In this document: positions 8,865 through 58,562 of the stretch, one piece after another
Layout: every line of letters starts with the position of its first letter
How positions within the stretch are numbered: the first letter of the stretch is position 1
From: an uncultured virus (IMG/VR IMGVR_UViG_3300037296_000406)
Lineage: Duplodnaviria; Heunggongvirae; Uroviricota; Caudoviricetes
DNA length: 64,000 nt
Reading direction: 5' to 3' (one strand)
Virus record (IMG/VR): IMGVR_UViG_3300037296_000406
Translations under genes and position numbers: made by a program
The notes under the pieces: generated by a model
What the model saw: only the letters and a program-made list of their open reading frames with translations
The model's database searches: none
What the model was told of the DNA's origin: nothing

Positions 8865-10016
8865 CTATTTCTTAAAGTTGCTATTACTAATAACTCTTCC
8901 TTTAAATAGATTATTCGGATAAATATTATCTCGAAGCCAATCTTTCTCTGTTTCAGATTCGCTCTCAGATACATAAGTGTACCATGCTCTACTGTCTTTA
9001 TTCCACATATAACCACGAGCTTTTAAAAAATCTTTTGTTTCATAAGGAGTATTGTCTGCAAAAATAATATATTCTTTTACTGTTTTCAAGTTACTGTCAA
9101 TATTTAAAACTTTCTTATTATCACTTTTAGTTTTAGAAAGAACAGTTAAATCTTTAAATCTATTTTTAGAATTCAAAACAACTTTTTCAACAGTCGTTGA
9201 TTTATATTTTGCTAATTTAGTAGTTAATTCATTTTCTATTTTTAGACATTCGGATTCATCTCTAAAGTACTTGTACCAAAATTTAGTATTAGCTTCCCAC
9301 ATAAAGTTGTGAAGATTGAAAATAGATTTTGAATCAAAAGGTGTATTTTTCGCTATTAGAAGGTATTCTTTATTATCAATATTATTATTTAAGTATTGAA
9401 AATACGTCATATCTTCGAGAGGTGTATTTTGTTGTAATAATTCAGCTAAAGCTTTAGTATCATTAATCGCTCTGTGTCCTACAAAATAAAATCCATGATA
9501 TTCACATAAAGATTCTTGATTTTTTTTAGGGAAATTCCAGTCATCCCAATCTAAATCTTTGATAGAGCAAGTCCAAGGAATATCTTTTAATGAATCTATT
9601 TTTTCTTCAACAAAAGGTCTGTCAAATTTACTATTATGTGCAACACAAAAATCTACACTTTCCATATCCTTATCAACTTCATCCCAATCTATTTTCTGAC
9701 CTTCTAGATCTTTATCAGTAATTCCTGTAATACGGATTATTTGTTCATCAAGTTTCTCTTGAGGATCTTCTAAACCGTTAAACTCTTTTAACACTTTTAC
9801 AATTTTACCTGTTTTCATAGAAACTTGTAATTTTAAATATCCGAGTTCTATTATTTTATGTTCTTTAGAGTTTAAACCTGTAGTCTCAACATCAATAACT
9901 AAAATGGTCTTTAGATCTATTATATCGTTGGGACTTAATGATAAACCTACAAAGGGCTTTATTAATATACATCCGTCTTCTTGTAATCCAATTCTTCTAT
10001 ATCTTAGCTTTTCCAT
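8865..10016 (-). CDS. DEDDh 3'-5' exonuclease (DnaQ-like) with two C-terminal repeat domains
   Basis: ExoI IDVETTG, ExoII AHNSKFD, ExoIII HRAINDT; two NTP(F/Y)..K......W.....WY units. Confidence 0.9.
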   Translation of the reverse strand: MEKLRYRRIGLQEDGCILIKPFVGLSLSPNDIIDLKTILVIDVETTGLNSKEHKIIELGYLKLQVSMKTGKIVKVLKEFNGLEDPQEKLDEQIIRITGITDKDLEGQKIDWDEVDKDMESVDFCVAHNSKFDRPFVEEKIDSLKDIPWTCSIKDLDWDDWNFPKKNQESLCEYHGFYFVGHRAINDTKALAELLQQNTPLEDMTYFQYLNNNIDNKEYLLIAKNTPFDSKSIFNLHNFMWEANTKFWYKYFRDESECLKIENELTTKLAKYKSTTVEKVVLNSKNRFKDLTVLSKTKSDNKKVLNIDSNLKTVKEYIIFADNTPYETKDFLKARGYMWNKDSRAWYTYVSESESETEKDWLRDNIYPNNLFKGRVISNSNFKK

Positions 10017-10757: not shown

Positions 10758-13004
10758 TTGGGATATATATTAGTAATCGTTGAATCGCCATCAAAAGCAA
10801 AAACAATAGAGAAGTATTTAGGAAAAGATTATAAAGTAATTGCATCAAAAGGTCATATTTATGATCTACCTCCAAAAGAGCTTGGTATCGATTTACACAA
10901 TAACTTCAAAGAAACTTTGGTAGCGATAAAAGGAAAAGAAGACACTATCAAGTATATAAAGAAGATGGCTAAAGGAGCAGATAAGATTTTACTTGCGCCC
11001 GATCCAGATAGAGAAGGGGAAGCTATTGGTTTTCACCTAAAAAAGGCTGTTGGTTCATCTAAAGAGATTGCTAGAGTTACTTTTAATGCGATTACAAAAG
11101 AAGTTGTACAACATTCTGTAAAAAACCCCACTGAACTCAATAAAAATATGTATGCTTCTCAAAAGACTAGAAGAATTCTAGACAGATTAGTAGGATATAA
11201 AGTTTCTCCCATTCTCTGGGATAAAATTGCAACTGGACTAAGTGCAGGTAGAGTTCAGTCTGTCGCATTAAGAATTATTGTAGAAAGAGAAGATGAAATC
11301 AAAGCATTTAATCCAGAGAAATGGTTTTCTTTAACTGCTACATTAAATAAAGGACAAATTTTCGAAAGTAAATACTTTGGTAAAAACGCTAAAGATAAGA
11401 ATGTATTAAGTGATAAAGAAGAAGTTGAAGCTATTGTTAAAGACATAAAGGATAAACAATTTAAGTTAGTCAGTTCAACAACTAAAGATAAAATCCAAAG
11501 TCCAACTCCTCCATTTACGACTTCTAAATTACAACAAGAAGCTTCAGCTAAATTAGGTTTCTCAGCTAAATTAACTATGCAAATTGCACAAAAGCTTTAT
11601 GAAGGAAAGAGTCTTAAAAATCATGGAACTCATGGTTTGATTACTTATATGAGAACAGATTCTGTTCGAACAGATGATAAAACATTAGATGGACTTAGAG
11701 AATATATTTTAGAAAATTATGGAAAAGAATTATTGTCAGAAGATAAAATAATACATAAAAAGAAAGGTTCTGGTGATGCGAAGACTCAAGACGCCCATGA
11801 ATCAATTAGACCTGCATCATTAAAATTCAAGCCTGATGATATTAAAGATGATTTATCTGAAGAAGAGTACAAATTATATAACCTTATTTGGAATAAGTTC
11901 GTAACATCTCAAATGGCATCGGCTATTATTGAAAACACTACTTATATTTTTGACTGTGCTGGTCACCACTTTAAGACTAGTGGTAATGTTTTAAAATTCT
12001 CTGGATTTAAGACTGTTTACGATGAAGAAAAAAAAGAAAAAAAATCTAAGAAAGGTGAAGATGATAATGAGGAATCTAATGCGGAACTTCCTTTAATAAT
12101 TCAAGATGAATTAGTTAATCAAGAAAAAGATGCAATATCAAAAGAGAATCTAACTTCTCCTCCAGCAAGATATAGTGAAGCAACTTTAGTAAAAGAGTTA
12201 GAAGATAAAGGCGTTGGTAGACCAAGTACATATGCGGCTATTATTGAAAACATTAAAAATAAAAAATATGTAGAACATTTTCAGAAAAGATTTAGACCAA
12301 CAGAACTTGGTGAAGTTTTATGTAAAATGTTAATTAAATATTTTCCATTAACTTTCGATGTTAAGTTTACAGCTAAAATTGAAAAAGAACTTGACTCTAT
12401 AGAAGAAGGTACTGAGAAGTGGACTGAAGTTTTAAATAATTTCTGGAATGGTCTTCATGAAAAAATAAATGAAGCATATCAAAAAATGCCATCGTTAAAA
12501 CCTTTAGGAATTCCAACTGGTCAAGAATGCTCAAAGTGTGAATTGGGTAAGTTAACTTTTATTTGGAAAAAAAATATTTCATTTCTAGATTGCGATAGGT
12601 GTGAATATTCTTCAAAAGCTGAACTTGAAAAAATTGGTCATTTTAAAGAAAAGTCTCTTGGTGCCAATCAAAAACCTTGTATTAAATGTGGTGGAATTAT
12701 GGAAATAAAAAGTGGTAAATATGGAGAATTTTGGGCATGTACAAACTATCCAGATTGTAAAAAAACTATGCCAGTTACTACGGGGGTAAAATGTCCTCAA
12801 TGTAATAAGGGCGAATTCGTCAAGAAAGTTTCAAAAAAAGGAAATACATTTTGGGGATGTTCTAATTTCCCTAATTGTAAAAGCGTACTTTGGGGAGAAC
12901 CCGTAGTTCAAGCTTGTGTCCACTGCAGACATCCTTTATTATATAAAGATAATAGAAGCGGAAAACTACAATGCGCTAGTGCTCAATGTAAGAAATATAA
13001 TTAA
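10758..13004 (+). CDS. topA: DNA topoisomerase I (type IA) with C-terminal zinc ribbons
   Basis: VIVESPSKAKTI, DPDREGEAI, SAGRVQS, catalytic LITYMRTDS, GVGRPSTYA, C4 Zn ribbons; TTG start with SD. Confidence 0.97.
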   Translation: MGYILVIVESPSKAKTIEKYLGKDYKVIASKGHIYDLPPKELGIDLHNNFKETLVAIKGKEDTIKYIKKMAKGADKILLAPDPDREGEAIGFHLKKAVGSSKEIARVTFNAITKEVVQHSVKNPTELNKNMYASQKTRRILDRLVGYKVSPILWDKIATGLSAGRVQSVALRIIVEREDEIKAFNPEKWFSLTATLNKGQIFESKYFGKNAKDKNVLSDKEEVEAIVKDIKDKQFKLVSSTTKDKIQSPTPPFTTSKLQQEASAKLGFSAKLTMQIAQKLYEGKSLKNHGTHGLITYMRTDSVRTDDKTLDGLREYILENYGKELLSEDKIIHKKKGSGDAKTQDAHESIRPASLKFKPDDIKDDLSEEEYKLYNLIWNKFVTSQMASAIIENTTYIFDCAGHHFKTSGNVLKFSGFKTVYDEEKKEKKSKKGEDDNEESNAELPLIIQDELVNQEKDAISKENLTSPPARYSEATLVKELEDKGVGRPSTYAAIIENIKNKKYVEHFQKRFRPTELGEVLCKMLIKYFPLTFDVKFTAKIEKELDSIEEGTEKWTEVLNNFWNGLHEKINEAYQKMPSLKPLGIPTGQECSKCELGKLTFIWKKNISFLDCDRCEYSSKAELEKIGHFKEKSLGANQKPCIKCGGIMEIKSGKYGEFWACTNYPDCKKTMPVTTGVKCPQCNKGEFVKKVSKKGNTFWGCSNFPNCKSVLWGEPVVQACVHCRHPLLYKDNRSGKLQCASAQCKKYN

Positions 13005-13075
13005 ATGATCTTATAATTATTATTTTTTTTAATTTTGTATTTTTTATTAGTATATAACACTAATAAGGAGTTACA

Positions 13076-13555
13076 ATGAACATCAGTACAATTGCACAAG
13101 GTTACGTATTAGGGAAATTATATTTATTCTTATTTAAATGCTTAAGTATTTTATTCATCCCTGTTATTATACTATATTTTTGTTTTATTTTCTCGTTTAC
13201 ATATAAGCCTTCGCCAAAAGAGCTTGAAAATTATCCCCCTCTATTATCTTCGGAGTTTGTTCAAGAAAGTACTTCACACCTCAGATATAATGTTAGAGTA
13301 GTATTAGCTAGCTTTGCTCCAATGAATGTAAATCACTTTAACGATCTTTCTCCTGAACAGATTAAGAATTTTCCAAAAATGAAAGATGCTTTTTTAACAA
13401 AGACTGAGCCAAATATTTTCAGAGAATTTGCTATATTTCTACCTAGGTATCAAAAGGGTTTAACACGTCTTTATGGAAAAATAACTAAAAAAATAGTTGC
13501 TCATTTTAAAGATAAGCCTATTGCTAAATTAAATTGGGATATTACTAAAAAGTAA
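13076..13555 (+). CDS. Hypothetical membrane-anchored protein
   Basis: N-terminal TM segment; SD AAGGAG. Confidence 0.7.
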   Translation: MNISTIAQGYVLGKLYLFLFKCLSILFIPVIILYFCFIFSFTYKPSPKELENYPPLLSSEFVQESTSHLRYNVRVVLASFAPMNVNHFNDLSPEQIKNFPKMKDAFLTKTEPNIFREFAIFLPRYQKGLTRLYGKITKKIVAHFKDKPIAKLNWDITKK

Positions 13556-13589
13556 TAGAGATCATTTTAATTTACCCATTTAGAGATTT

Positions 13590-14384
13590 ATGAGTACGAA
13601 AATAATTTCATTAGTAAATCAAAAAGGTGGTGTAGGTAAAACTACAAGTTCTATTAATATCGCTAGTGCATTATCTAAGAGAGAAAAAAAAGTCTTGTTA
13701 ATTGATTTAGACCCTCAAGGAAATTGTTCTACTGGTTTAGGTGTTAAGAAAGAACTTTTTCACTCAGCAAATATATATCACTGCTTATTGGGATCCAAAA
13801 ATATTAAAGACTGTATTTATTCAACTTCTAATGATTTATTAGATCTTATGCCTTCCGATATAAATCTTTCTGCGACTGAATTAGATTTAGCTAATGAAAT
13901 GGCTAGAGAATCTCGACTAAAAAACTCTTTAGAAGAAATAAAAGGTGTATATGATATAATTATAATTGATTGTCCACCATCTTTAAGTTTACTTACAATC
14001 AATGCCCTAAATGCTAGTACTCACTATATAGTTCCTATGTTGCCTGAGATGTATTCACTAGAAGGATTCTCTCATATTCAACGAACCACTCAAAAAGTTC
14101 AACAATTTTTAGGAAATCCTATTATAAATTTAGGTGTTCTACTTACTATGGTTGATAAAAGAAATAATCTACATAAAGAAATGAGTACTTATTTAAGAAA
14201 CAATATTAAATCTTATATGTTTGAAAATGTAATACCTAGAAACATTAAATTATCAGAAGCTGTTAATTTTGGAAAAAGTATTTTTGATTATAATAAAAAA
14301 GCAATAGGAGCTTTAGCCTATGAATTAGTAGCTGAAGAGTTGCTTAATCAAGTTGGTGAAGATAAAGAGGATAATAATGAATAA
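13590..14384 (+). CDS. parA: ParA/Soj partition ATPase
   Basis: Deviant Walker A NQKGGVGKTT, IDLDPQGN, IIDCPPSL, IPRNIKLSEA. Confidence 0.96.
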   Translation: MSTKIISLVNQKGGVGKTTSSINIASALSKREKKVLLIDLDPQGNCSTGLGVKKELFHSANIYHCLLGSKNIKDCIYSTSNDLLDLMPSDINLSATELDLANEMARESRLKNSLEEIKGVYDIIIIDCPPSLSLLTINALNASTHYIVPMLPEMYSLEGFSHIQRTTQKVQQFLGNPIINLGVLLTMVDKRNNLHKEMSTYLRNNIKSYMFENVIPRNIKLSEAVNFGKSIFDYNKKAIGALAYELVAEELLNQVGEDKEDNNE

Positions 14385-15234
14385 AAAAAGTTTGATTGGT
14401 AATGGTGTAAATAGTTTCTTTAATCAAGAAAATGATGCTTCAACTCCTGAGGGAGACTCTCTAGTAGAATTAGATGTTGATTTAATTATAGAAAATGAAT
14501 TTCAGCCGAGAACAGCTTTTGATGATGATAAAATTCTTGAACTAAGTCATTCAATAAAAGAAAATGGAATACTCCAACCTCTTACTGTAATAATAAATAA
14601 AGAAGGGAAGTATGAATTAATTGCCGGAGAAAGAAGGCTTAGGGCTTCTCGTCTAGCTGGATTAGAAAAAGTTCCTGTTATAATTAAAAACAATGTTACT
14701 TCTGAAAATAGGAGTTTACTTGCTATATTAGAGAATCTTCAAAGAGAAGATCTTAACTGTGTTGAACTAGCCGTATCTTATAAAAAGACTATGAGTGATT
14801 TTAAATTAAGTCAAGAACAATTATCTCAGAAATTGGGAGTTGCTAGAGCGAGCATAGCGAATTCACTCAGAATACTTAACTTGCCAGAAAAGGTTCTTGG
14901 ATATCTAGAAAAAGGTAAAATAAGCTTAGGTCATGGTAAAATTCTTGCAGGATTAAAAAGCACTGAGCAATGTATTTCTCTTGCAGAAAAAGTTGTTTAT
15001 GGAGAACTATCCGTAAAAAAATTATCAGAATTACTCAAAAAAGATTCTTTAAAAAATCAACCCACTAATGAAAGTATTTCAAATATTAAGTATAAAGAAC
15101 AGCAAAAAGAATTAATTATGTCAACAGGATTAGCTTTTGAAATCAAAGATAAGAAAGATGCTGGTGGAAAAATAGTTTTACACTTTAGTAATGATGAAGA
15201 ACTTAAGAAAATATTAGAATCTTTTTCTAAATAA
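14377..15234 (+). CDS. parB: ParB/Spo0J partition protein
   Basis: FQPRT, GILQPL, IAGERRLRA (CTP-binding arginine patch), ENLQREDLN, HTH. Start moved to ATG 14377 with SD GAGG, overlapping the parA end. Confidence 0.96.
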   Translation: MNKKSLIGNGVNSFFNQENDASTPEGDSLVELDVDLIIENEFQPRTAFDDDKILELSHSIKENGILQPLTVIINKEGKYELIAGERRLRASRLAGLEKVPVIIKNNVTSENRSLLAILENLQREDLNCVELAVSYKKTMSDFKLSQEQLSQKLGVARASIANSLRILNLPEKVLGYLEKGKISLGHGKILAGLKSTEQCISLAEKVVYGELSVKKLSELLKKDSLKNQPTNESISNIKYKEQQKELIMSTGLAFEIKDKKDAGGKIVLHFSNDEELKKILESFSK

Positions 15235-15236
15235 TA

Positions 15237-15818
15237 TTATTTTTTATTTAAATAATTAACTAAATAAATTGCAGCAGATTGTGAAGTACCTCTGAGGCTC
15301 TGAATACAATCGTTATCATTGTCTTTATCTTCTTTTATAACTTTATTTCCAAAATTTGAATAATTTTCACTATTTCCTATACAATATAAATTTTCAATAT
15401 TATATACACATGGATATACCTTGTGTATATCTATATTTTTTTTATCGTTGCCAGAAGACACAATAATTTTAATACCTAAATTACTCGCTAGATCAATTAA
15501 ATATTTTTCTTTTTTTGATTCTTTTTCTCCACTACTTGTATAGACAATATAGTCAACTTTAGATGCTATAGCTTCTTTTAAAGATTTTATTCTTCCATCA
15601 AATGTATTTTTGTGATTTAAGCTAATAATCTTAATGTTTTTATTAAACTTAGTTAATATACAAGCTATGTCGGTTCCATGATAATCATCAATCTTAGATT
15701 CTAATCCTATAACTTGTTTTTGAATATCTTCGTTTAAAGGATAAACTCCAGTATCTATAAGAGCTACTGTTTGAGCTTGTGCTAAGGTGATCATTGTCAT
15801 CATTATAATTATTATCAT
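15237..15818 (-). CDS. Minimal subtilisin-like (S8) serine protease, probably secreted
   Basis: Triad motifs VALIDTG, HGT and GTSQSA, plus oxyanion SSGN. Signal-like N-terminus from an ATG near 15818 (start uncertain). Confidence 0.8.
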   Translation of the reverse strand: MIIIIMMTMITLAQAQTVALIDTGVYPLNEDIQKQVIGLESKIDDYHGTDIACILTKFNKNIKIISLNHKNTFDGRIKSLKEAIASKVDYIVYTSSGEKESKKEKYLIDLASNLGIKIIVSSGNDKKNIDIHKVYPCVYNIENLYCIGNSENYSNFGNKVIKEDKDNDNDCIQSLRGTSQSAAIYLVNYLNKK

Positions 15819-17736: not shown

Positions 17737-20454
17737 TTATACTTTTTTTACATCTCTTTTTCTGACTATAGAAATCTCTTTTCTGGTAATCTTATTGTGA
17801 CAAGAGCCACATATCATCATTAAGTTATCTTTATGGTTAATATGTTTTTTTATTCCATTAATAATAACTTCTTTAATTTGACCTTGTTTTTGATCAATTA
17901 TATGATGAGTCTCTTGAACAGGATTATTATCACATAAAGGACAGATAATACCCCTCACGTTAGAATTATATCGACTCTTCTTCAAAGGAGCATACTTCTT
18001 GTTATAATTTTTTGCAACACGTATCAAATCTTCAGGTAATCCACATGATAAAGCGACATCGATTCCATAAGAACCTTCACCAACACCATCAACTAATTTT
18101 CGAGTAAAAGATAACTTTCCAATGTTATCAATATAAGTATCCATATTTTTAATACATATATTATCGTACTGAATTAGTTTTGGTCCCATTTTATGATAAT
18201 GAGTCGCAAAAAAAGTCAAACCTTTATTATCTTCTTTCGATAAGTAATCTAAAGTAGAGAACGCTAACGCTTCGCCATCTTCAGCAGAAGTTCCCCTTCC
18301 TATCTCATCGAATAAAAATAAAGATCGTTGTTCTGTATATCTTAATGATTCATTTAACTCTTTCATCTCCATTGTAAATGTAGATAACCCTTCAGACAAA
18401 GAATCGTATGTTGTCATTCTTGTGAGAATATTTTGAAAAGTTGTTAATTCAGAACCTTTATCTGAGGAAATAAAGCAACCAATTTGAGCCATTATTATAT
18501 TCAGAGCTAAAGCTTTTAATACAGTTGATTTACCAGAAGAGTTTGCTCCGTAAATACACATAATATCTTTATCTTTATCAAAAAAAATATCATTTGGAGT
18601 ATATTCTTCTTCTAATCTAAAGTTATTTTCAACAACAGGGTGCCTTAAATTTTTTATGTTCAAAAATGAGTGTTCACTTTCTATTAATGTAGGCTTGTTG
18701 TAATCTCTTTCTTGAGATATTCTAGCAAAGTTATTTAAAACATCTACCTTAGAAATTTCTTCACTTATAGAATGTAAATCTTTTCCAAATAATTCTGATA
18801 CCTTGGACAAGAACAATCTCCACTCTTTAAAAGCTTTCATTTTATATCTTTGCATATCTAAAAAAGCTTTGTTGGATACGTTAATCCATTCATCATCAAT
18901 AACTTCAACTTCAGATGCTAGAATTTTAAAACTTACTATTTGATTCAGTTTTTTTGTTTTACAATTAAAACTTTTAGGACCCTTTAGTTTATAGCTTTCT
19001 TTAGTTTGTATTATCTCTTTAAATTTTTTCTTATTATCTATAAGAAATTCTTGTGCTTTAATATCATATTCTTTTTTTAAAGAATTCATATCTTCATGTG
19101 ATTTTTCCCACTTTTCTTTTCTTTCTAGTAGAGATTTTGCAAAATCTCCTTTAAAATAAAGATAACTATTTTCAGTCTCTAAAGAAAGTTCCTCGAAGTC
19201 TATATTTTCACTAAGATACTTTATTATTGTATCAACTGTTTTATGGGTTTCATTATTTTCTGTCTTTAATATTGAATGAATGCTTAATAGACTACTATAT
19301 AGATTAGATATATCCATAGGGTCTATAGTACCTAAAAAAATTCTTCTTGACATTCTTGCGATATCATAAACTTTTTTAAGCTCTTTATAATCTGTTTTAT
19401 TTTTAATATATTTTTCAACAACAGTATATCTAGCTTCAATCTCATCGATATTAATGAGAGGCTCTCTTAACCACTCTCTAAGTTTCCTTCTACCCATAGC
19501 AGTATAACACTTATCTAAGCAGTAAGCTAAAGAGTCTTCTTCAGAACCTGATTGATTTTCGAATACCTCTAAAGATTTTAAACCGTTCATAGGAATAAGA
19601 AGATGATTAGTTTTGTTATATATTTCTGGTTCTGATAGTTTTCTTAATAGAGAAGTACTGTATTCTGTAGAAGATAAGTGGTCTACGAGATTAGCTAAAG
19701 ATAATGTAGCAAAACGCCATTTATCCAATCCTAATGTAGATATATGATATTCAGGGTTCGATGTTGGTGTATCAAGATTGTACAAGTGAGAAAGAACTCT
19801 CCCTGAGTCAGCTAAGTTTTTAATATTCATCTTACTCTTATTGTGAACAAATTTAAATTTCTTTGTATTTATTTTTAAATCCCCAAAAACAAGAATCTCT
19901 GTTGGATTAAAATTATTTAAATAATCGTTCAAATCTTGTTCTAATATTTCCGTAACCTTAACTGCACCAGTACTCAAGTCAACGAGAGATATTCCTATAA
20001 TGTTATCTTGTTTAATTAAGCATGCATAGTAATTATTTTTCTCTTCAGATAAGTTTTCAACGATTGTTCCCGGAGTAAGAATCTTCTCAATAAATCTTGG
20101 CACTCCTTTATTCTGATCGGATTTTCTTCCATTTATTTTTTGTGAAACTACTATAACAGTATTTCCATTGTTTACTAATTTTTTAAAATAAAAATCTGAT
20201 ACAGAAACATTAAATCCGCACATCGCTGGACTTTTAGGGTCTGCTTTATTTCTTTTTGTTTTCTTAATATCTAATATTCTATGAGCTTTTTCAACATGAC
20301 CTAATTCGTTCTTAGACCATATTTCATAAAAATCTCCTACTTGGTAACATATTATTGCTTCTGGATTTTTATACTGTATAGAGAAGTAGTGTTGATACAT
20401 TGGAGACAATGCTTGAAACTCTTTAGGTAAAATTAAAGATTCTTTTTCACTCAC
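17737..20454 (-). CDS. mutS: MutS-family ATPase with C-terminal HNH endonuclease (MutS7-like)
   Basis: Mismatch motif QVGDFYE, TAMGRRKL, RHPVVE, Walker A GANSSGKST, STFTMEM, DEIGRGTS, FATHYH. C-terminus CPLC...ETHHI...NL..ICGSCHN. Confidence 0.93.
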   Translation of the reverse strand: MSEKESLILPKEFQALSPMYQHYFSIQYKNPEAIICYQVGDFYEIWSKNELGHVEKAHRILDIKKTKRNKADPKSPAMCGFNVSVSDFYFKKLVNNGNTVIVVSQKINGRKSDQNKGVPRFIEKILTPGTIVENLSEEKNNYYACLIKQDNIIGISLVDLSTGAVKVTEILEQDLNDYLNNFNPTEILVFGDLKINTKKFKFVHNKSKMNIKNLADSGRVLSHLYNLDTPTSNPEYHISTLGLDKWRFATLSLANLVDHLSSTEYSTSLLRKLSEPEIYNKTNHLLIPMNGLKSLEVFENQSGSEEDSLAYCLDKCYTAMGRRKLREWLREPLINIDEIEARYTVVEKYIKNKTDYKELKKVYDIARMSRRIFLGTIDPMDISNLYSSLLSIHSILKTENNETHKTVDTIIKYLSENIDFEELSLETENSYLYFKGDFAKSLLERKEKWEKSHEDMNSLKKEYDIKAQEFLIDNKKKFKEIIQTKESYKLKGPKSFNCKTKKLNQIVSFKILASEVEVIDDEWINVSNKAFLDMQRYKMKAFKEWRLFLSKVSELFGKDLHSISEEISKVDVLNNFARISQERDYNKPTLIESEHSFLNIKNLRHPVVENNFRLEEEYTPNDIFFDKDKDIMCIYGANSSGKSTVLKALALNIIMAQIGCFISSDKGSELTTFQNILTRMTTYDSLSEGLSTFTMEMKELNESLRYTEQRSLFLFDEIGRGTSAEDGEALAFSTLDYLSKEDNKGLTFFATHYHKMGPKLIQYDNICIKNMDTYIDNIGKLSFTRKLVDGVGEGSYGIDVALSCGLPEDLIRVAKNYNKKYAPLKKSRYNSNVRGIICPLCDNNPVQETHHIIDQKQGQIKEVIINGIKKHINHKDNLMMICGSCHNKITRKEISIVRKRDVKKV

Positions 20455-20465
20455 AATTCCCTTCT

Positions 20466-20678
20466 TTATATTTTAGTAGTATGTTTTTTTTCTTTATTTT
20501 CAACTGACCTCTTATAATCAGATTTTTTCTTTTTCATTCTCTTCTTTTCACTTTTTGATACATGATGTTGTCTATCTTTAATTTCTATAATTAAGTTAGA
20601 TTCACGAATCTTCTTTTTAAATTTTGATAACATTTTATTTTCGTTACCTTTATAATCATCTAATTCTAGTTTTATCAT
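20466..20678 (-). CDS. rpsU: Ribosomal protein bS21 homolog
   Basis: 70 aa, basic. KMLSKFKKKI...IIEIKDRQHHVSKSEKKRMKKK fits the bS21 pattern (AL++FK++...E++.R.++.KPSE++). Confidence 0.75.
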   Translation of the reverse strand: MIKLELDDYKGNENKMLSKFKKKIRESNLIIEIKDRQHHVSKSEKKRMKKKKSDYKRSVENKEKKHTTKI

Positions 20679-21923: not shown

Positions 21924-24455
21924 TTATCTTGATGGAGTTAATACAACTCTTATATTTGCTGGTGCAAAAAATATTCTTGCTGCTTGCTGAAGATCTCCCG
22001 CATATAAAGATGCAATTCTTTGAGCAATAGATGCCGTACCTTGTAAAGCTGCACCTGTAAGACTATCTTCAAGTACTTCTGAATTTTGGAAAGGGGCAAT
22101 AAAGTTTTGAGATAATGCTCCAATCGCTCCTGAAGTAAATGAACTTATGAAAGCTCCTAAAAGTAATTTACCTCTAGTATCTCTAACTTCTCCTTTTAGT
22201 CCCGGAGACAAGTCCGCAGAACCAATATCAAAGCTTACATCAACAACTCTTCCACCGACAGATACAGTGTCTAATGTAATATTCATAGTATATGTATCAA
22301 CATCGAATCCTCCTGTTGTTCCAAAAGCTATACTATTTCTTGGAATAACAATTTTACCAGACAAGTCATATACATCTGTGGTAATTTTAACTCTAACTTT
22401 TTGTCCAGAACCTTTATCCGTTGTTAAAATTCTTGTTAATAATAATCCCGGAACAACTAGGTCAGGAGCTAATTCAAAAGGTCTCAAATCGTTATTTTCC
22501 GAAACAATAAGAGCTTTGACTCCACCTTGATTCGCACCACCTTGAGCTAATGCTGAATTTAACGAAGATGTTTGACCCGCAAGTGTATCACCTGCATTTA
22601 AAAATTCTTTTTCAATTCTTTTCTGTTCAGCTATATCATCAGCTTTCTTTCTTCTCATTAGTTTAATAATTTTTATTTGGTCTGGAGACAACTCTTTTCC
22701 ATCTATTCCAGTCATTCCTTTTTTTCTAGACCTAGCTATTTTAGTTTTGTTTTTTTGTTTTTGAATAAATATTAATGGTTTAATGTCTTTACATCTAGTC
22801 CAATTGGATTCAGACACAGTCATTCCTGAAGGATATATAGTCTGAAAATCTACACCTATTTGGTCTATAGTTGATTGCATTCCAGTTATTAATTTTGCTA
22901 ATCTATCTTTTTGTTTTTGCAAAGTCTCCTGTAATTCTGATAATCTCTTTTGTAATTCTGCAAATCTTTGTAAAGCCGCTTGTTGCGCAGGTGTTAGTGG
23001 AAGACCTTGTGATAACCTTTCTGCTGCCTCTCTAGCCGCGGCCTGTGCTCTAGCTAATTCTTCTCTCATTGCATCCATCTCTGCTTGCCTTTTAGCTATA
23101 TCATCAGCTAAGGCTCTACCAAGAGCTTCCTTATCTACACCAGATGATATATTTCCAAATTCTGCTCTTGTTCCTAATAACTTTTCTTCAGATTCTGATA
23201 AAGTTCTACCTAAGGCTTTTTTCAATAAAGCACCTGCGAGTTCATTGTTCCCTGCTCTCTTTGCTTCAGCTGCCTTTCTAAGAGTTTCGCCATCTATATT
23301 GACTAAGTCTGCTTCCTCTGGAGTAAGTTCTTCTCCATTTAGTTGCTTTAATAAAGCATCTGCAATATCTGTCTCACCTAAGAATCTAGCATCAAGAATT
23401 TTTCTTGCAGTATCTCTTTTTCTTGGGTCAGAAGACAATAAAGCTTCTGCAATTGCATAGTCGGGGTCATCAATACTGATTTCACCTTTTAAAAATCTTC
23501 TTAACAGTTCTTCTTCTTCAGGAGAAAGATTTTCAGCATTCATTAAATTTTTAATAAAATCAGGATTATTTAATGCTTCAGCTAGTAGCTTATTAATGAT
23601 TCCTTTCATTTTTGGGTCTGTTAGCATTTTAATTAATAATTCAGGTGAACAGTTTTCAAGTAAAGCCTTAAACACTTGCACATCCTCACTTGTCAATCCT
23701 AGATAGGTCTCTAAACCATTTGGAGTGATTATTGCTTGCCTAAGTTTTGATTGATTTTTAAGCAATTCTATTACTTTTTCATTCAATAATTTATTTCCAA
23801 TAACTTCAGCTATAAATCTATTTCCACCACTTGTAACTATTTGTTTTTCAAATGTATCTTTACATTCTGGCTCGGCACTAAATAATTCATTATATAACTT
23901 TTTTTCTTCTGCAGAAAGCAATCCATTATCTAATAATTTCTGAGCTAGATTTAGTTCTTCGGGAGATAAACCTAAAAGATTATTCTCTAAACAGTATTTA
24001 AGTCTTTTCTTTTCGTTAAGTCCAAGAGTCTCTCCCTTCTTTAACTTATTTAATAAAATTAAACACTCACCAGACTTAGGATTTATATCATCATCTTCTA
24101 GCTGATTGTTACCTCTCCCGTTATCTTCACCAAATCCTTGTATTTTTGACAGTGGATTCCCCGTAATATCAGTATTATATGGAATTTCTTGGGCTGTTAC
24201 AACTAACTTCTTTGAAATTTCAGTGTCATAGTTTTTAATCCCATCAATAGGATTAAATGTACTATTAAAAATTTGATATGCTGCGATTCCCGCAATAAAA
24301 ACAAAAAATGCTGTTACTAGAATCTTTTTAACAGCCTTAGGGCTACCAAATTTAATCTTACCAGTATCTGGGTCTTTCATTTTATTGAAAATTTTGTCTG
24401 CTATTTTAAGTAAAGCAGTTCGTATTCCCATTAACAATTGCATTAAAAATTTCAT
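21924..24455 (-). CDS. Extended VirB10/TrbI/DotG-like T4SS core protein
   Basis: N-terminal TM, long helical and coiled-coil stalk, C-terminal TrbI-type domain (VVPGLLLT...VKITTDVY...VIPRNSIAFG...GLKGEV followed by helical antenna). Confidence 0.85.
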   Translation of the reverse strand: MKFLMQLLMGIRTALLKIADKIFNKMKDPDTGKIKFGSPKAVKKILVTAFFVFIAGIAAYQIFNSTFNPIDGIKNYDTEISKKLVVTAQEIPYNTDITGNPLSKIQGFGEDNGRGNNQLEDDDINPKSGECLILLNKLKKGETLGLNEKKRLKYCLENNLLGLSPEELNLAQKLLDNGLLSAEEKKLYNELFSAEPECKDTFEKQIVTSGGNRFIAEVIGNKLLNEKVIELLKNQSKLRQAIITPNGLETYLGLTSEDVQVFKALLENCSPELLIKMLTDPKMKGIINKLLAEALNNPDFIKNLMNAENLSPEEEELLRRFLKGEISIDDPDYAIAEALLSSDPRKRDTARKILDARFLGETDIADALLKQLNGEELTPEEADLVNIDGETLRKAAEAKRAGNNELAGALLKKALGRTLSESEEKLLGTRAEFGNISSGVDKEALGRALADDIAKRQAEMDAMREELARAQAAAREAAERLSQGLPLTPAQQAALQRFAELQKRLSELQETLQKQKDRLAKLITGMQSTIDQIGVDFQTIYPSGMTVSESNWTRCKDIKPLIFIQKQKNKTKIARSRKKGMTGIDGKELSPDQIKIIKLMRRKKADDIAEQKRIEKEFLNAGDTLAGQTSSLNSALAQGGANQGGVKALIVSENNDLRPFELAPDLVVPGLLLTRILTTDKGSGQKVRVKITTDVYDLSGKIVIPRNSIAFGTTGGFDVDTYTMNITLDTVSVGGRVVDVSFDIGSADLSPGLKGEVRDTRGKLLLGAFISSFTSGAIGALSQNFIAPFQNSEVLEDSLTGAALQGTASIAQRIASLYAGDLQQAARIFFAPANIRVVLTPSR

Positions 24456-29049: not shown

Positions 29050-30810
29050 TTAAAAATTATCGTTCTTAAGAAGATATCTTACAGAAGAATCTATTTTTTT
29101 ATATAATTTTATGCCTTTTGTTGAATACGGAGCATCACTTCCTCCCGGTTGACCCGGACCAACTTTTAAAGCATCCCACTTGTATTCATTGAAATAAACA
29201 ACAGGTTCAAGAGCAAACTCTGAATTTATGCCTTGAGTGTTTGAATCTTGTTTCTTTACACAATACTTGCTTTCTTCAAACTTTGGAAGGTCATTATTTC
29301 CACCTGTACCTGCTAGTCCAGCTTCTGCTGAAGATATTAGATTGTCAATGTCATAAACAAATAATATTGCATCTCCCTGAGTTGTTCCGCTCGTACCTGC
29401 TGTGGGAACAATTATGTCCTGATTAGCTTCAAATCTCTTAGTAATTGTTTCTACTGAACAATTATCTGGACTACATAATAATAATTCAGTTCCAAAATTT
29501 CTATCTTGATATGTCCCTGAAGAACTCCATGGAATTCTCCTGTCTGGGTCTTCAGCGATAGAAACATCTGAGCATGAATTACCTATCTCTCCATAAGTTA
29601 TCCAAAATTCTAATATGGGACTTAAAACCTCAAAGTCTCCAAAGATAGAACACTCTTCGAAAAAACCTGTTTCAGCAACTTCCCAAGTAGAACCCGGAAG
29701 AGGCTCTAGAGTGTCCTCATCTAACCCCGGTTGTTCAAAAATTAAATCAGATAAACCAACAAATCTCCAACCCGGACCAGTTGGACCAGAAGAATATTGT
29801 TGACAAATTTGTTCTAACTCTCCGTTTCTCTCAGCATCTCTTATTACTTTTTCCTGTAATTGAACTGTTGTATTAAAAGCAAAAGCTCCACCACTCATTC
29901 CATTATCTTCGTCAAATGGTGTCGGACTAGATTCTGCAGGGTAACTACATCTTGAATTGTCAGAGTAAACTTCCCAAGGATTAGAAGCTCCTGCTTCTGG
30001 ATAAGAAGAAATCCCTTCTACTGTTCTGTTTAAATCTCTAGTACCCCAACAACTACTTGCGATAGAGTATTCACAATTATTTCCACCCCATTTATTTGTG
30101 CATGGTTTTCCCGCTACTGAAGAACCAAGCGGAAGAGATTCCCACTGACACTCTGCTTTAACTTTTCTTTTAACACATTTATATTTCTGAGATGTTCCTG
30201 TACACTTTTGTTTAAACTTAACTCTCTCAACATTTACTAACGAAAATTCTGTTTCAATAAAATCTAGATCAGATGTCTCTTCTAGACAACTAAATGAAGT
30301 TCTTTGAATTTCTTCAACGTCTTCTTCAACACACCTATCTGCAGGCAAATTAATATCAGCAGTTCTTCTACTTAAGAATTGGTTCTTATAGAATTCGCCA
30401 TACTCTGAAGCTAACACCTTTTCTGCACATATTTCAGATGCAGATTTTCCACTAACACCTTCATATCCGTCAATTGTCAGATTGACGTCATCAAAAACGT
30501 CTCCTACTAAAACAAAGTCTGCAGAATTAAATCCTTGTCTTTTAGATTGTAAATTTACAAATAAGTCTTTACCTGATGTATCGTTATTATTAACAGAGAA
30601 AAATAAAGCTCGAGGTTCTTGGTTACTTGGTAAGTTTATTTGAATTTCATCTTCATTAAAATCTCCTGCATCTATAAATGTCATATTTGATTTTTCTAAA
30701 TATATTGAAGAGTTAAAATCTGGTCTACATTCTCCAAAACCACAAACAACATTTTTTGTTGCTGCAAAACTACTCATATTTAAAGCTAATATAATTAATA
30801 TAATTTTCAT
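29050..30810 (-). CDS. Secreted Cys-rich frame protein, paralog C (586 aa)
   Basis: Signal peptide; N- and C-terminal regions shared with the two upstream genes; ends KKIDSSVRYLLKNDNF. Confidence 0.85.
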   Translation of the reverse strand: MKIILIILALNMSSFAATKNVVCGFGECRPDFNSSIYLEKSNMTFIDAGDFNEDEIQINLPSNQEPRALFFSVNNNDTSGKDLFVNLQSKRQGFNSADFVLVGDVFDDVNLTIDGYEGVSGKSASEICAEKVLASEYGEFYKNQFLSRRTADINLPADRCVEEDVEEIQRTSFSCLEETSDLDFIETEFSLVNVERVKFKQKCTGTSQKYKCVKRKVKAECQWESLPLGSSVAGKPCTNKWGGNNCEYSIASSCWGTRDLNRTVEGISSYPEAGASNPWEVYSDNSRCSYPAESSPTPFDEDNGMSGGAFAFNTTVQLQEKVIRDAERNGELEQICQQYSSGPTGPGWRFVGLSDLIFEQPGLDEDTLEPLPGSTWEVAETGFFEECSIFGDFEVLSPILEFWITYGEIGNSCSDVSIAEDPDRRIPWSSSGTYQDRNFGTELLLCSPDNCSVETITKRFEANQDIIVPTAGTSGTTQGDAILFVYDIDNLISSAEAGLAGTGGNNDLPKFEESKYCVKKQDSNTQGINSEFALEPVVYFNEYKWDALKVGPGQPGGSDAPYSTKGIKLYKKIDSSVRYLLKNDNF

Positions 30811-33800
30811 TATAGTAGCTCCTCTTTTAAGAAATTTCTAACAGATGAATCAACTTTTTTAAATATGTTAATTTTCTTTCCATTATCTTCAATAGGTTGA
30901 GGTTGTGCTCCTGTAGTCTCTACCTTAATTGCTTGCCAGTTATATTTTCTGAATTGAACAACTGGATCTGATGCAAAAGGAGAATCGGAACCTTCTGTGT
31001 TGGCATCTTGAATCTTATAGCAATATCTAACTTCATTTATTGTTGGTAGATCATTAACACCTTTAGTTGCATTACTTCCTTTAGTTGCTGATGCTACGAT
31101 ATTTTCTGCATCATAAATAAACATTATACCTTCACCTTGTTGTGTTCCTCGTAAATCATCATCCAGACTTATATTCGGTGTCATAGTTGCATTAATATTT
31201 TCGACATTACTTTTTATTGAACAATCACCTATTGAGCATATTACGCTTTCAACACCAAACTCTGCTTTTCTCTCAAACCCAACGTTCTTCCAATCAATCA
31301 GTCTATTTTCTGGGTCGTATTTATAATCTATGTTGTCACATCTATCGTCATCAGGATCGAATGCTATATGGGTCGTTACATAGTCCTCTTCTATTTTTTC
31401 ATGATATATAGGACATTGCTGTCCAACTTTTACATATTGTAATCCCCATAAAGATTCATCAGGAGATGTAAAATCTTCAGGATTGTATGTTGGCGCTGTT
31501 CTAGATATTTCTGGTTCTCCGTAAATATCATAGAATCCCGGACCATCTTGACCGATTACATTTGCCAAACCTTCTTGAGCTGGTGGAAGTGTTGGTCCCG
31601 CATTTGATGGAACTACTTGAACTTTAATATTATCATAATAAGAAGGATATTCTCTTTGAAAAGATCTTAACTCTAATATAGATGAACTTGACTGAGCTTG
31701 AAATACAAAGTCAATAGGTTCTCTTTTTCTAGCTGTTATCTTAGTATCTCCCTGCTCAACATCATCTCTAACCCAAACCCATCCTCGATAAACAGATTCT
31801 CTTGTTGGATTTGATCTTAAAGAACCAACTGAAACATTTGAGTTGGATGCTTGGTGGTAACATCCTAATCCAATAAATGAATCAGGAGTTGTACAATTAT
31901 TATTATCATTCATGATCAGACCAAATCTACAAGAAACTTTCCAATTTCCAGATACTATATTATTAAATCCTTTAGAATTACAGAATGGTTGATTTTCAAA
32001 ATTAGAATAGTTTTGTTGTGTAAGATTCATTATATCATATCTACCAAAAGAGATATCACTTGATGTTCCAAAAACCTCTTTTGCATTTTCTTTATTCGTT
32101 ACGAGATTCATACAGTTTTCTGTATTTATCATACAAATTCTAGTTTCTTTAGCCTCTATGCTAGTGTAAGCTCTACTTTTCATATTCTTATTAGTTGTTA
32201 AATCTAAATCTTTTTCATTGTATATTGAATCATTTGTCCAGTATGGGGAGTTGTAACTCCAAACATCTGTATTAGTGGCTAATCTAGATACTAGTGTCCA
32301 TCCACCTCCATCACTTGTCATATCACAGTAAACCTGAAATGGGTCTATAGGTCCATTTTGCCCATCTGGGTCAATAAAATATTTTCCACTTTCAATAATA
32401 TTTCCATTTTTTTGTAAATCGCTACAAGACTTAAAGTACAAATAAGCTTCTGGACTTTCACCATTTTCATCTACAAGTATAGGCTTATTTTCTACAGGAT
32501 AAATACTTCTAATAGGTTCATCTTTTGGCTTAGGAGTACCTGAAGTCGTTACTTGAACTTCTGTTATCATTGTTGACTTTCTACCAAAGTTAGGGTCATC
32601 ACAAATCATTTTTAAATAACCTGTAAATGTTCCACCAGCTTGAGGATTTGCTTTCACAGTAACAAAACAATCTTCTCCTGCAGCTAATTCATCTGGACAA
32701 GAATTTACTTCCAATTGGAAGTGAGGCGATAGTACTTCAGAAGTTGAGCCTGTATCTGACCCAATAAAAGGTTCTTCACAGTTTACTGCAGGTCTATTTT
32801 CTTCTCTATTGACAATTCTAAAATCATTAAATGGTTGAAAAGATGTATTTATCTGTTTGTAAGTAATTTGTACTCCGTAAACAAATTTTCCACGACACCC
32901 ACCTCTTAAGTCACCCGTAGTTCTTTTTTCACTTGTATATTGTTGATCACTAGAAGTTCTTATATGGTTATCAAACAAAGCTTTAGGGTTATTTGAGCAA
33001 GTCCCTTTGTAACACCAACGAGAGCATCTCCCGCTTTTACTTCCATCACAAGTCAAGGTGTTAAATAGTGCGCTACTGAAATAATCCGCATCGTTACAAC
33101 CAAAATCAGTTGTAGAACCTTGAATATAACCATAATCAAATGTTACAGATCCTCCAACCCCAATTCTTCCAAAGTGTTTATATGTTGGTACGCTGTCTAA
33201 CCAAGCAGGATTTATAAATCCTGCCGGAGTAATATCTTGTTGATAAATCTTGTTTAATTTTGGAATATCAGAATAAACATTAACTTGTCCAGCACTTCCA
33301 ATATTATCTTCAACCGATTGAGAAAAAACTCCTGTCACTCTATATTTTTTTCCAATTTCTGTAGGAATGATTTGGTTGGCGCTAGGAACGTCAGTTAAAT
33401 TAGATAAGTCTGGCGTTAAAGTTGTTTTTTTAATGTCAATAAACCCATTACTTCCAGATGGAGATTCGATTAGGTAATTTAAATTATCACTAATTAGATA
33501 ATCATACCTTAAAAAAACTTTTGCTCCTGTTCCATGTTCTGTTGGTCGACCATCGATAGAACCAGTTCCTTCAATGATAGGCGAGTGAATAAAAAATGGT
33601 ACACCATTTGTGTAAGCGTTAGTTTCTCTATAATTTATTCTTACACCATAAACAAATTTTCCACCACAACCCTTTCTCAAGTCTCTAGTAATTCTATCAA
33701 ATCCAGTGTACACCTGATTTGATTGCTTTAAAAATCCATTGAATATACCAGCTGCATTCCTACTATTTTGACATTGCCCTTTATAGCAAAATCTTTTACA

Positions 33801-47938: not shown

Positions 47939-49612
47939 TCACGCAGGAAATTCGATATCTTTTAAAAAGATCTTAAGTTTACTTCCATTTGAATAAGTAT
48001 CTCCAATAATAGAGAACTCATGTTCTTCAGAAATTATTTTATTATATTTAGAAAAAAGCTCTTTAGATGCAAAAAAACATATAATAGAAATATTGTCGTC
48101 AATTTCTATTTTAAAGTGCTCTTCTTTTAGTATTTTATAATCTTTTATTTTTTTTAAATTATTAATTTTTATAATTGGTCTATCGTTACCTTTTCCAAAA
48201 GGTTCCATTGAGTAAAGTAGTTTAATAAATGCATCATCAATATCTTTGTGTTCAATATCGACTTCTGACTCACTTATACTGCCGACTTTCTTTCCAATCA
48301 TAAAATCTTTAATTAAAGATTTTACTAAATCAACTTTACTTTCTTCTACAGAGAATCCTAATGCAAAATCATGACCACCACCTTCAATATTTTTTCCTAA
48401 AATATCAATTAAAGGTGTTAATTCTATTCCAGATAAGGATCTCATCGAAGCTTTTCTTTTTCCATCATCGCCTAAACCACCAAGAACTAATACAGGTTTC
48501 TCTAATTCATAACAAAACCTTGTAGCTAAAAGTCCTATGATTCCTAAATTATAATCTTTGTCATCAAGAATTAACAATTCCTCATTAAAAGAATCTTTAA
48601 GCATTAATTTAGCTTCATCATAATATTTTTTAGTCATATCTTTTCTATTTTTATTATTTGACATTAGTTCTTTAACTTTTTCAAAAGAATTTAAAGTATC
48701 ATCAGTTAATAAAGATATTACCCAATCTGGATTTCCAATTCTTCCGGCTGAATTTAGTATTGGAGATAACTGCTGTCCAACATCCATTGCGTTAGGATAT
48801 TCAAAAAAATTAACATTATCTAATAATAAATTTAAGCCAACAATATTTGTTTCAAACAAATACTCCAAGCCATGTTCGACAATCATTCTATTATCGCCTT
48901 TTAATGGCATCATATCTGATATTATAGTTATCATAGCTAAAACTAAGTAATCCACCATCTTCTGTCTTTTCCCTTCAGAAAATATTGTACTATTAATAGC
49001 TCTTAAAAAATAGAAAGCAACTCCGCCTCCAGATAAACCTTGCAGATTATTTGGATCTTTAGTTATAAATTTAGGATTAATAATAGCTACAGCATTAGGT
49101 ATTTTATCTAATTGCACAGTATGATGATCAGTTATTATAACATCAATATTCGCTTTTTTTAAATCATCTACTGCTTTCTTTGCTGTAATTCCAGTATCCA
49201 CTGAAATAATTAGGTCTGGGGCATATTCTTCAATCATTTTCTTTACAGTATTATCATTGAATCCGTATCCATCACTTTTTCTGTCAGGAATGAAAAAATC
49301 AACATTAGCGTTTGCTCTTAAAAGATATAAGTAAATCATTGATGTAGCAACCATTCCGTCAACATCGTAATCCCCAAAAACAACAATTTTCTCATCCGAT
49401 ATTAATGCTTTCTTAATTCTCTTTAATGCTTTCTTCATTGTTGGAAATTTTAGAGGATTATCTAATTTGTATTCTTTCTTAAAATATTTTAAAATATTAT
49501 CTTCGGTATCTATTCCACGATTATATAATAAAGTACTTATACTTTTTGGTATTTTATAGAACTTGCTTAAAGCTGTAATACTAGCTAAATCTTTATTATC
49601 ATATTTTTTCAT
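47939..49612 (-). CDS. recJ: RecJ-like ssDNA exonuclease (DHH family)
   Basis: FGDYDVDG, PDRKSDGYG, VDTG, TDHH, INP, NSAGR, GGGH. Confidence 0.93.
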   Translation of the reverse strand: MKKYDNKDLASITALSKFYKIPKSISTLLYNRGIDTEDNILKYFKKEYKLDNPLKFPTMKKALKRIKKALISDEKIVVFGDYDVDGMVATSMIYLYLLRANANVDFFIPDRKSDGYGFNDNTVKKMIEEYAPDLIISVDTGITAKKAVDDLKKANIDVIITDHHTVQLDKIPNAVAIINPKFITKDPNNLQGLSGGGVAFYFLRAINSTIFSEGKRQKMVDYLVLAMITIISDMMPLKGDNRMIVEHGLEYLFETNIVGLNLLLDNVNFFEYPNAMDVGQQLSPILNSAGRIGNPDWVISLLTDDTLNSFEKVKELMSNNKNRKDMTKKYYDEAKLMLKDSFNEELLILDDKDYNLGIIGLLATRFCYELEKPVLVLGGLGDDGKRKASMRSLSGIELTPLIDILGKNIEGGGHDFALGFSVEESKVDLVKSLIKDFMIGKKVGSISESEVDIEHKDIDDAFIKLLYSMEPFGKGNDRPIIKINNLKKIKDYKILKEEHFKIEIDDNISIICFFASKELFSKYNKIISEEHEFSIIGDTYSNGSKLKIFLKDIEFPA

Positions 49613-58532: not shown

Positions 58533-58562
58533 AAAGGTATTAATAATAAAGTTACTACCTTT
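58533..58562. terminator. Possible bidirectional terminator
   Basis: AAAGGTA...TACCTTT inverted repeat between convergent genes. Confidence 0.45.

Follow-up and report, generated by a model that had tools for sequence, protein, structure and literature searches.

The MutS7 family, reportedly defined by Ogata et al. in 2011, is one of the described systems with which we compare here a gene named mutS-HNH, located on the minus strand at positions 17737..20454 of a stretch of 64,000 nucleotides from an uncultured virus of the Caudoviricetes (IMG/VR record IMGVR_UViG_3300037296_000406); this whole stretch is referred to below as the window. The gene encodes a MutS protein that ends in an HNH nuclease domain. 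According to the available text of PMC3166940, MutS7 proteins combine an HNH domain with MutS domains I, III and V, domains II and IV being absent, and the range given in the accessible parts of three sources covers octocoral mitochondria, nucleocytoviruses and Epsilonproteobacteria, the origin of the family being left open (PMC3166940, PMC8438181, 10.1101/2024.07.17.603841). The MutS proteins reported from gut jumbo phages are presented, in the part of the source available to us, without an HNH domain. Plant MSH1, in turn, is described in the accessible section of 10.1101/2024.07.17.603841 as a MutS lineage of its own, without a direct relationship to MutS7. Our literature search on MutS7 and HNH, on MutS in giant viruses and on MutS in jumbo phages returned nothing on a lineage such as the one encoded in the window. 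We propose, with a probability of about 60%, that the product of mutS-HNH belongs to an undescribed and deep-branching MutS-HNH lineage related to MutS7, for which we infer below a mechanism and a role in replication fidelity.

The MutS core and the HNH tail

The ORF list and its translation showed that mutS-HNH is a single open reading frame (ORF) of 905 amino acids with a GTG start and a TAA stop, with the Shine-Dalgarno-like sequence AGAAGGGA placed 4 nt 5' of the start codon. A search in a collection of 5.8 billion proteins retrieved nine relatives of around 900 amino acids and 40-73% identity, all of them metagenomic, and the next matches were MutS1 proteins at 29% identity or less. The window protein and its relatives, called the clade from here on, make up around 13 clusters at 50% identity, all metagenomic (P0010, P0174-P0184, P0209), and an alignment showed that the N-terminal extension of the window protein is also kept in the relatives P0002 and P0003.

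The full protein was analyzed with Pfam (all the features in this section are on the minus strand). Domain I (MutS_I, PF01624, E 2.8e-19) covers residues 18-133 (20056..20403) and includes the Phe-X-Glu mismatch motif F42-Y43-E44 (20323-20331), with G40, F42 and E44 invariant in two alignments, and F42 and E44 across 18 relatives. Domain II, the connector (PF05188, residues 141-198, 19861..20034), was detected with 34.3 bits over a gathering cut-off of 25, and the same family appears in the precomputed annotation of 10 out of 10 members of the clade (P0001-P0010); by contrast, it was found in none of 12 classical MutS7-like proteins (P0046, P0094-P0104). Domain III (PF05192, E 1.6e-30) corresponds to residues 292-577 (18724..19581), in such a way that 286 residues are stretched over a profile of 194 positions. 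The domain IV family (PF05190) gave no match on the full 905-residue protein, and neither did PF27441, the HNH domain standing in place of the C-terminal region of MutS1. The ATP-binding cassette (ABC) ATPase of domain V (PF00488, E 7.8e-46) spans residues 633-819 (17998..18558) and contains a Walker A at G636-T644 (18523-18549), the signature S691-T692-F693, a Walker B at D716-E717 and H752, with G636, K642-T644, the STF signature, D716-E717 and H752 invariant across 18 relatives. Judged from its sequence, the gene product is thus an intact MutS mismatch sensor with complete ATPase motifs, in agreement with the original prediction, which described a full MutS with the FYE motif and an ABC ATPase.

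A model generated with AlphaFold2 from an alignment of 18 rows had a predicted local distance difference test score (pLDDT) of 81.5 and a predicted template modelling (TM) score of 0.73. Its comparison by Foldseek with MutS from E. coli (3k0s_A) aligned 832 columns (E 6e-52), with TM scores of 0.72 by query and 0.81 by target. A clamp-like insert is modelled in domain III at the position of domain IV, with beta strands at 481-518 between helices 436-471 and 521-583. The region 822-835, predicted as a linker, is of low confidence (pLDDT below 50-58), and the tail that follows is modelled as a beta-beta-alpha fold, with strands 848-851 and 878-881 and a helix at 883-890.

Just before the HNH domain, the linker contains the motif K825-K-S-R-Y-N830 (17965..17982), common to classical MutS7, with S827, Y829 and N830 invariant in three alignments. 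In the form K-x-S-[RK]-[YF]-N it was also found in the classical MutS7-like proteins P0094-P0104 and in MutS7 proteins of the candidate phyla radiation (CPR). The HNH domain itself, a nuclease fold of the beta-beta-alpha-metal type supported by PF01844, by a profile search in the Protein Data Bank (PDB) and by a hidden Markov model (HMM) of MutS7 tails, covers residues 838-891 (17782..17943), inside the range of around 17760-17950 where a zinc-binding HNH had been anticipated. It shows a Cys4 zinc site (C838/C841/C882/C885), E848-T-H850-H851, N877 and H886, and the four cysteines, H851, N877 and H886 are invariant in 18 members of the clade. When the last 110 residues were scanned alone, PF01844 scored 22.5 bits, over its cut-off of 21.4, and 13 out of 13 tails scanned in the same way were matched. 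The tail profile retrieved solved HNH nucleases from the PDB, such as Cap5 (8fm1, E 2.6e-4), 9dif and IscB (9nvu), and also the group II intron maturases 6me0 and 5g2x and ZRANB3 (5mkw).

The MutS7-tail HMM was built from 148 classical MutS7 tails, with the members of the clade excluded. The tail of the window protein scored 69.5 bits with it, three times the score of the generic Pfam HNH model, and 21 out of 21 tails of the clade matched with 45-87 bits. Among 44 tails labelled as MutS1 only one was matched, P0026, a mislabelled protein that lies inside the MutS7 clade. The clade and classical MutS7 have in common a tail pattern made of the K-x-S-R-Y-N linker, which lies outside the generic HNH domain, followed by CxxC..HH..N..CxxCH. 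These data indicate that the tail is specifically of MutS7 type and that its HNH is a genuine zinc-type domain. An unrelated, independent fusion of an HNH is therefore excluded, and so is a spurious HNH, two outcomes that the original prediction had named in what would overturn it.

Phylogenetic placement, proposed role and alternatives

A profile search against 1.84 billion representative proteins was used to delimit the clade. The 150 best matches all aligned through the end of the HNH domain, with the members of the clade at 898-1215 bits followed by classical MutS7-like proteins of 861-1339 amino acids at 508-580 bits. The identity of the window protein is 27-30% to MutS1 and 24-27% to MutS7. 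Genome contigs scanned with the clade alignment, through patterns that are generic, gave MutS1 in all the best 80 loci, at 30% identity or less over the full length, and MutS1 matches also dominated a similar scan of metagenome contigs. A pattern-limited scan of IMG/VR found no MutS of the clade and only seven MutS7 loci of giant viruses, on seven contigs of which five are named GVMAG; six of them (L081-L084, L086 and L087) were included in the trees described below.

Regarding bacterial hosts, 385 of 401 Bdellovibrionota genomes showed a MutS match, with a best score of 461 bits. Among the 150 matches listed, beyond which there are another 245, not one passes position ~820 of the 889 of the profile, so that only the MutS1 type was recovered from the Bdellovibrionota searched. 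Oligoflexus also gave only a match of MutS1 type, and two Peribacteria genomes gave no MutS match. Five of 301 Patescibacteria genomes were matched at E <= 1e-140, two with a full-length classical MutS-HNH and three with a MutS1-like protein, and no member of the clade was found among these genomes at that threshold. The two classical proteins (L402 and L405, from the CPR genomes G632 and G690) have 997 and 1000 amino acids and group with MutS7 of Campylobacterota (FastTree support 1.0), and because 2 of 301 CPR genomes carry it, classical MutS7 is more widely distributed in bacteria than the range given in the literature. In Campylobacterota, classical MutS7 was detected in four of the five genomes searched (Malaciobacter canalis, Halarcobacter ebronensis, Sulfurimonas sp. 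CS5 and an Arcobacteraceae metagenome-assembled genome).

The placement of the clade was analyzed with trees of the MutS core, computed without the columns of the tail. In a FastTree of 226 rows and 815 columns, the clade (22 rows) and classical MutS7 (149 rows) grouped together with a support of 1.0, and MutS1 plus MSH were set apart with 0.994. An IQ-TREE analysis under LG+C20+F+G4 with posterior mean site frequencies (quick search, 77 rows and 808 columns) recovered the clade and classical MutS7 (38 rows: 4 from Campylobacterota, 6 from giant viruses and 28 further sequences) with a support of 100 each; their union received 97 in the Shimodaira-Hasegawa-like approximate likelihood-ratio test, and MutS1 plus MSH without the clade 99. 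The addition of the two CPR sequences to the FastTree gave the same picture, with these sequences joining MutS7 of Campylobacterota inside the classical clade. Approximately unbiased (AU) tests were carried out on 38 rows and 788 columns under LG+F+G4, with fast constrained searches and MutS2 as outgroup. They rejected the grouping of the clade with MutS1 of Bdellovibrionota (1e-5), with MutS7 of Campylobacterota (0.003) and with MutS7 of giant viruses (7e-5), p-values that, as those given below, have to be read with care because a simpler model was used.

The clade is therefore a third lineage, nested neither in MutS1 nor in classical MutS7, and we consider this firm; its position as sister of classical MutS7 is not secure. 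Grouping within MutS1, named in the original prediction as part of what would overturn it, was not observed, given the supports of 0.994 and 99 for a MutS1 and MSH clade that leaves the protein out and the rejected grouping with MutS1 of Bdellovibrionota. The tail is specific for the MutS7 family, and the protein keeps domain II and lies outside the clade of the Campylobacterota and giant-virus sequences (38 rows, support 100).

A tree built from the tails alone recovered those of the clade as monophyletic (21 out of 21, support 0.998), and its longest internal branch separates them from the classical tails (1.10, against a median of 0.12). The MutS core and the tail thus show the same deepest split. 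This pattern is consistent with a single ancient fusion after which both parts diverged together, and it speaks against a tail acquired recently by transfer.

Compared with the published definition of MutS7, the clade departs in one feature, since domain II is detectable; for domain IV, the lack of a Pfam match stands beside the clamp-like insert of the model. It shows domain I with Phe-X-Glu, domains III and V in which the ATPase motifs are intact, a C-terminal HNH and a tail homologous to that of MutS7. Regarding MutS1, the protein stays under the cut-offs of the NCBIfam MutS equivalogs (469.3 against 480 for NF003810, PRK05399; 417.2 against 641.7 for TIGR01070), lies outside the MutS1 and MSH clade, and has neither a PF05190 match nor a C-terminal region without nuclease; the MutS1 matches in our database searches do carry PF05190. 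In its domains and motifs the clade is intermediate, with MutS1-type domains (I, II, III with a clamp-like insert, and V) and several MutS1-type motifs together with a linker and HNH tail of MutS7 type, and it resembles an early or conservative version of the fusion. As such, it provides a natural outgroup to polarize the evolution of MutS7, both to tell the ancestral features apart and to ask if the fusion had a single origin.

Regarding function, a dimer of MutS-HNH would scan duplex DNA, and F42 and E44 of domain I would recognize a mismatch or a small loop. Binding of ATP in domain V would then turn the protein into a clamp state, and the HNH, held by a flexible linker of around 15 residues, would nick or cut the nearby DNA, replacing MutL and MutH. 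Excision and resynthesis would fall to exonucleases and polymerases encoded elsewhere. Plausible partners for excision are RecJ and the DEDDh exonuclease, both on this contig but 27 kb and 8 kb away and unlinked to mutS. Such a system would have as its role the fidelity of its carrier, a large AT-rich replicon. A compact protein of 905 amino acids with a conservative core is well suited for a first biochemical test of mismatch-directed cutting by an HNH.

Several points weigh against the reading of a MutS7-related repair lineage. The trees include neither octocoral mtMutS nor MutS8, and the AU test keeps three placements on an equal footing, the clade with MutS7 (0.46), with MutS1 (0.40) and beside the outgroup (0.60), the last of which had the best likelihood in the set of 38 rows. 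The core motifs DEIGRGTS..DG, FATHYH, GSYGI.VA and GDFYE are MutS1-like and not MutS7-like, and on the full-length protein PF01844 reached 16.4 bits, under the Pfam cut-off of 21.4. Our literature search found no biochemical data for any MutS7. Finally, the 64 kb seen belong to a contig of at least 519 kb, in such a way that a mutL, a second mutS or repair genes of host type may lie elsewhere on it.

Part of this evidence could be accommodated by a chimera, in which recombination or domain transfer gave a diverged MutS1 core, not a sister of MutS7, its linker and HNH tail of MutS7 type. The MutS1-type motifs of domains I and V and the detectable domain II are what such an origin would leave, the PRK05399 score is barely under its cut-off, the AU test leaves the clade with MutS1 standing, and the identity to MutS1 is slightly above that to MutS7. 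However, the two tail-free trees favour the clade with MutS7 (1.0 and 97), the Walker A context YGANSSGKSTLLKS of the clade is MutS7-like, and its tails are nested in no classical subgroup. Because these tails are split from all 148 classical ones on the longest branch, a transfer, if there was one, would have to date back to the origin of the family. We consider a chimera unlikely, while still worth keeping in mind.

A wider scenario, which we hold as speculative and on the whole rather doubtful, would see in the clade a surviving, near-ancestral MutS-HNH fusion that links MutS1 and MutS7 and resides on giant AT-rich replicons of 519 kb or more, which would be jumbo phages or else megaplasmids of Bdellovibrionota-like hosts. 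MutS7 would have arisen on large mobile or viral genomes of bacteria in need of fidelity without MutL, and would have reached later the Campylobacterota, the CPR, the giant viruses and the mitochondria of octocorals.

The lineage proposed here could also have a different job, acting as a nuclease triggered by mismatches or heteroduplexes and not in the repair of replication errors. Its breaks could abort recombination with diverged DNA, induce gene conversion among copies of the replicon, or act against competing elements. For plant MSH1, staggered double-strand breaks at mismatches are described in the available text of 10.64898/2026.06.11.731605, and many genes of the replicon are phage-like or belong to DNA metabolism (T4-type topoisomerase II, C5 methylase, exonucleases), with no mutL in the window. 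Yet sequence does not separate nicking from double-strand cutting, and the neighbours match no known defence genes by Pfam or NCBIfam, no PADLOC scan having been made. We regard this explanation as improbable. Finally, an ordinary MutS1 whose Cys/His-rich C-terminus was taken by chance for an HNH, as the full-length score under the Pfam cut-off could suggest, is refuted by the tails passing PF01844 in 13 out of 13 cases, the HNH nucleases retrieved from the PDB, the catalytic and zinc residues invariant in 18 sequences, the 69.5 bits of the MutS7-tail HMM and the MutS1 models staying under their cut-offs.

Carrier replicon and neighbouring genes

The window is part of a contig of 518,954 bp and has a GC content of 24-34%. 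Its DNA, or parts of it, was found in 16 sequencing runs labelled as salt lake metagenome, of which one contained at least half of the sampled words and eight less than a fifth; no RNA run was listed. Four of these runs covered mutS-HNH with short, low-depth contigs only. The majority match the window exactly, and 2-6 differences occur in a few short stretches that belong to longer or unrelated contigs. Searches of the window for tRNAs and Rfam families detected none, and promoter and terminator scans stayed at the level of shuffled sequence.

For annotation, 46 ORFs (43 of at least 100 amino acids and 3 of 70-81 amino acids beside mutS) were scanned with Pfam, and 47 with PHROG. Twenty-six of the 46 have no Pfam match, and the recognizable genes are almost all devoted to DNA handling. 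No match to DNA_mis_repair or MutL_C appeared among the 46, so the absence of mutL from the window that had been read from the sequence was reproduced. Directly upstream of mutS-HNH, on the same strand and with a gap of 11 nt, lies a gene for a small basic S21-like protein of 70 amino acids (20466..20678, minus strand; PF01165 at 28.6 bits, cut-off 27; TIGR00030 at 27.3, cut-off 28.95).

The two exonucleases predicted for the window were recognized on the minus strand by Pfam, NCBIfam and PHROG models, a DEDDh (DnaQ-like) 3'-5' exonuclease at 8865..10016 (PF00929, E 3.1e-16; NF006615 at 255.6 bits, cut-off 207) and a RecJ 5'-3' single-stranded DNA exonuclease at 47939..49612 with DHH, DHHA1 and RecJ_OB (TIGR00644 at 380.3, cut-off 396.9; phrog_2484, E 2.8e-84). 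A bacterial-type topoisomerase I (TopA), taken here as an indicator of affiliation, is encoded on the plus strand at 10758..13004 (TIGR01051 at 674.8, cut-off 456.4). Its closest named relatives are from Halobacteriovorax, Bacteriovoracaceae and Bdellovibrionales, with around 52% identity, and other relatives of the short form reach 56-73%; the pattern-limited IMG/VR scan found no close relative (best 41%), and a scan with this single protein gave only low-complexity peptide matches. For the TopA relative P0323 (73%) and the MutS-HNH relative P0003 (69%), the longest contig on record measures 25,376 bp in both cases and the source is also the same, and this coincidence suggests that the neighbourhood from topA to mutS is conserved in one relative.

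A T4-type topoisomerase II is encoded on the plus strand by a GyrB-like subunit of 669 amino acids (55098-57107, PHROG E 4.5e-134) and a GyrA-like subunit of 466 amino acids without C-terminal domain (57129-58529, PHROG E 5.3e-107). The gyrB and parE models stay far under their cut-offs for it, and its best phage relatives, at around 30%, are from jumbo phages. A T4-type enzyme and a Bdellovibrionota-like TopA are found on the same contig. A C5 cytosine DNA methyltransferase is found at 777-1763 on the minus strand (Pfam E 8.2e-42), with no restriction partner recognizable among the scanned neighbours, and the window also encodes ParA, ParB and a 2-oxoglutarate-Fe(II) oxygenase.

Concerning mobility, a protein of 843 amino acids with a TrbI/VirB10-like C-terminal domain (21924-24455, minus strand, 39.3 bits) and an ATPase of 506 amino acids with a weak HerA/FtsK/VirB4-like match (3260-4780, plus strand) were detected. 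VirB8, VirB9 and VirB11 gave no match even at E 0.5, and no complete set of conjugation genes was found in the window. A reading of the region from 21.9 to 30.8 kb as a conjugation or type IV secretion system was discarded, as only the TrbI-like domain and the weak ATPase were found. The PHROG scan of 47 ORFs gave no match to a capsid, portal or terminase family either, and the setting on a mobile element put forward in the original prediction thus found no confirmation in the window. The further suggestion that such an element could be a vehicle for the patchy spread of MutS7 finds no support, since no classical MutS7 group is nearer to the clade than the others.

Four very large proteins, probably of the surface or fibres, are encoded on the minus strand (30810-36956, 43059-47891, 37004-39730 and 58562-60811). 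In this order, the one of 2048 amino acids combines a fibrinogen-like GGGWT domain with a stretch similar to phage tail-fibre PHROGs, that of 1610 amino acids has thrombospondin-type-3 (MtsC-like) repeats, that of 908 a choice-of-anchor D or Ig-like part, and that of 749 an NHL repeat. Around 15234-15237, convergent gene ends coincide with a change of sign in the GC skew, in such a way that the genes at 10758-15234 are on the plus strand and almost all those at 15237-54354 on the minus strand, with negative skew.

Overall, the gene content looks more like that of a giant extrachromosomal or viral replicon than that of a chromosome, and by our judgement a mobile or viral replicon is favoured by about two to one over a chromosome from a reduced bacterium not yet sampled. 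Should the carrier turn out to be a phage or plasmid of more than 0.5 Mb, very large bacterial replicons would carry their own MutL-free repair, like the giant viruses of eukaryotes.

Comparison with known systems

MutS7 proteins of Campylobacterota and CPR have domains I, III and V, the K-x-S-[RK]-[YF]-N linker, a C-terminal Cys4 HNH and a similar Walker A context in common with the window protein, and probably also the same self-contained logic of recognition and cutting. They differ in their length of 987-1011 amino acids, in the lack of a Pfam domain II and in a diverged Walker B and His loop (GDElc.GTE, FATHLH), and they form their own clade (100) without that of the window, with identities of around 25% and a joint grouping rejected by the AU test (0.003). 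MutS7 of giant viruses (Nucleocytoviricota) has the same architecture and tail, with tblastn alignments from query residue ~19 to ~901 at 25-27% identity, whereas it is longer (about 990-1018 amino acids), carries extra C-terminal extensions and forms a separate clade (AU 7e-5).

Bacterial MutS1 (E. coli, Taq, Bdellovibrionota) has the same overall five-domain fold, Phe-X-Glu, DEIGRGTS..DG, FATHYH and domain II. By contrast, the window protein shows neither a Pfam match for domain IV nor the C-terminal region of MutS1, with the HNH there instead, and would work without MutL.

Plant-type MSH1 also joins a MutS mismatch sensor to a C-terminal nuclease, and is reported in the available text of 10.64898/2026.06.11.731605 as a minimal mismatch-directed nuclease, whose cutting at mismatches needs the recognition motif as well as the ATPase and the nuclease site. 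This work also brings up an alternative, in which such fusions would make double-strand breaks for recombinational repair in place of nicks; break-induced gene conversion has been proposed for plant MSH1. Its nuclease is of the GIY-YIG type and not an HNH, and by analogy it is the nearest experimental counterpart for the mechanism proposed for the MutS-HNH of the window.

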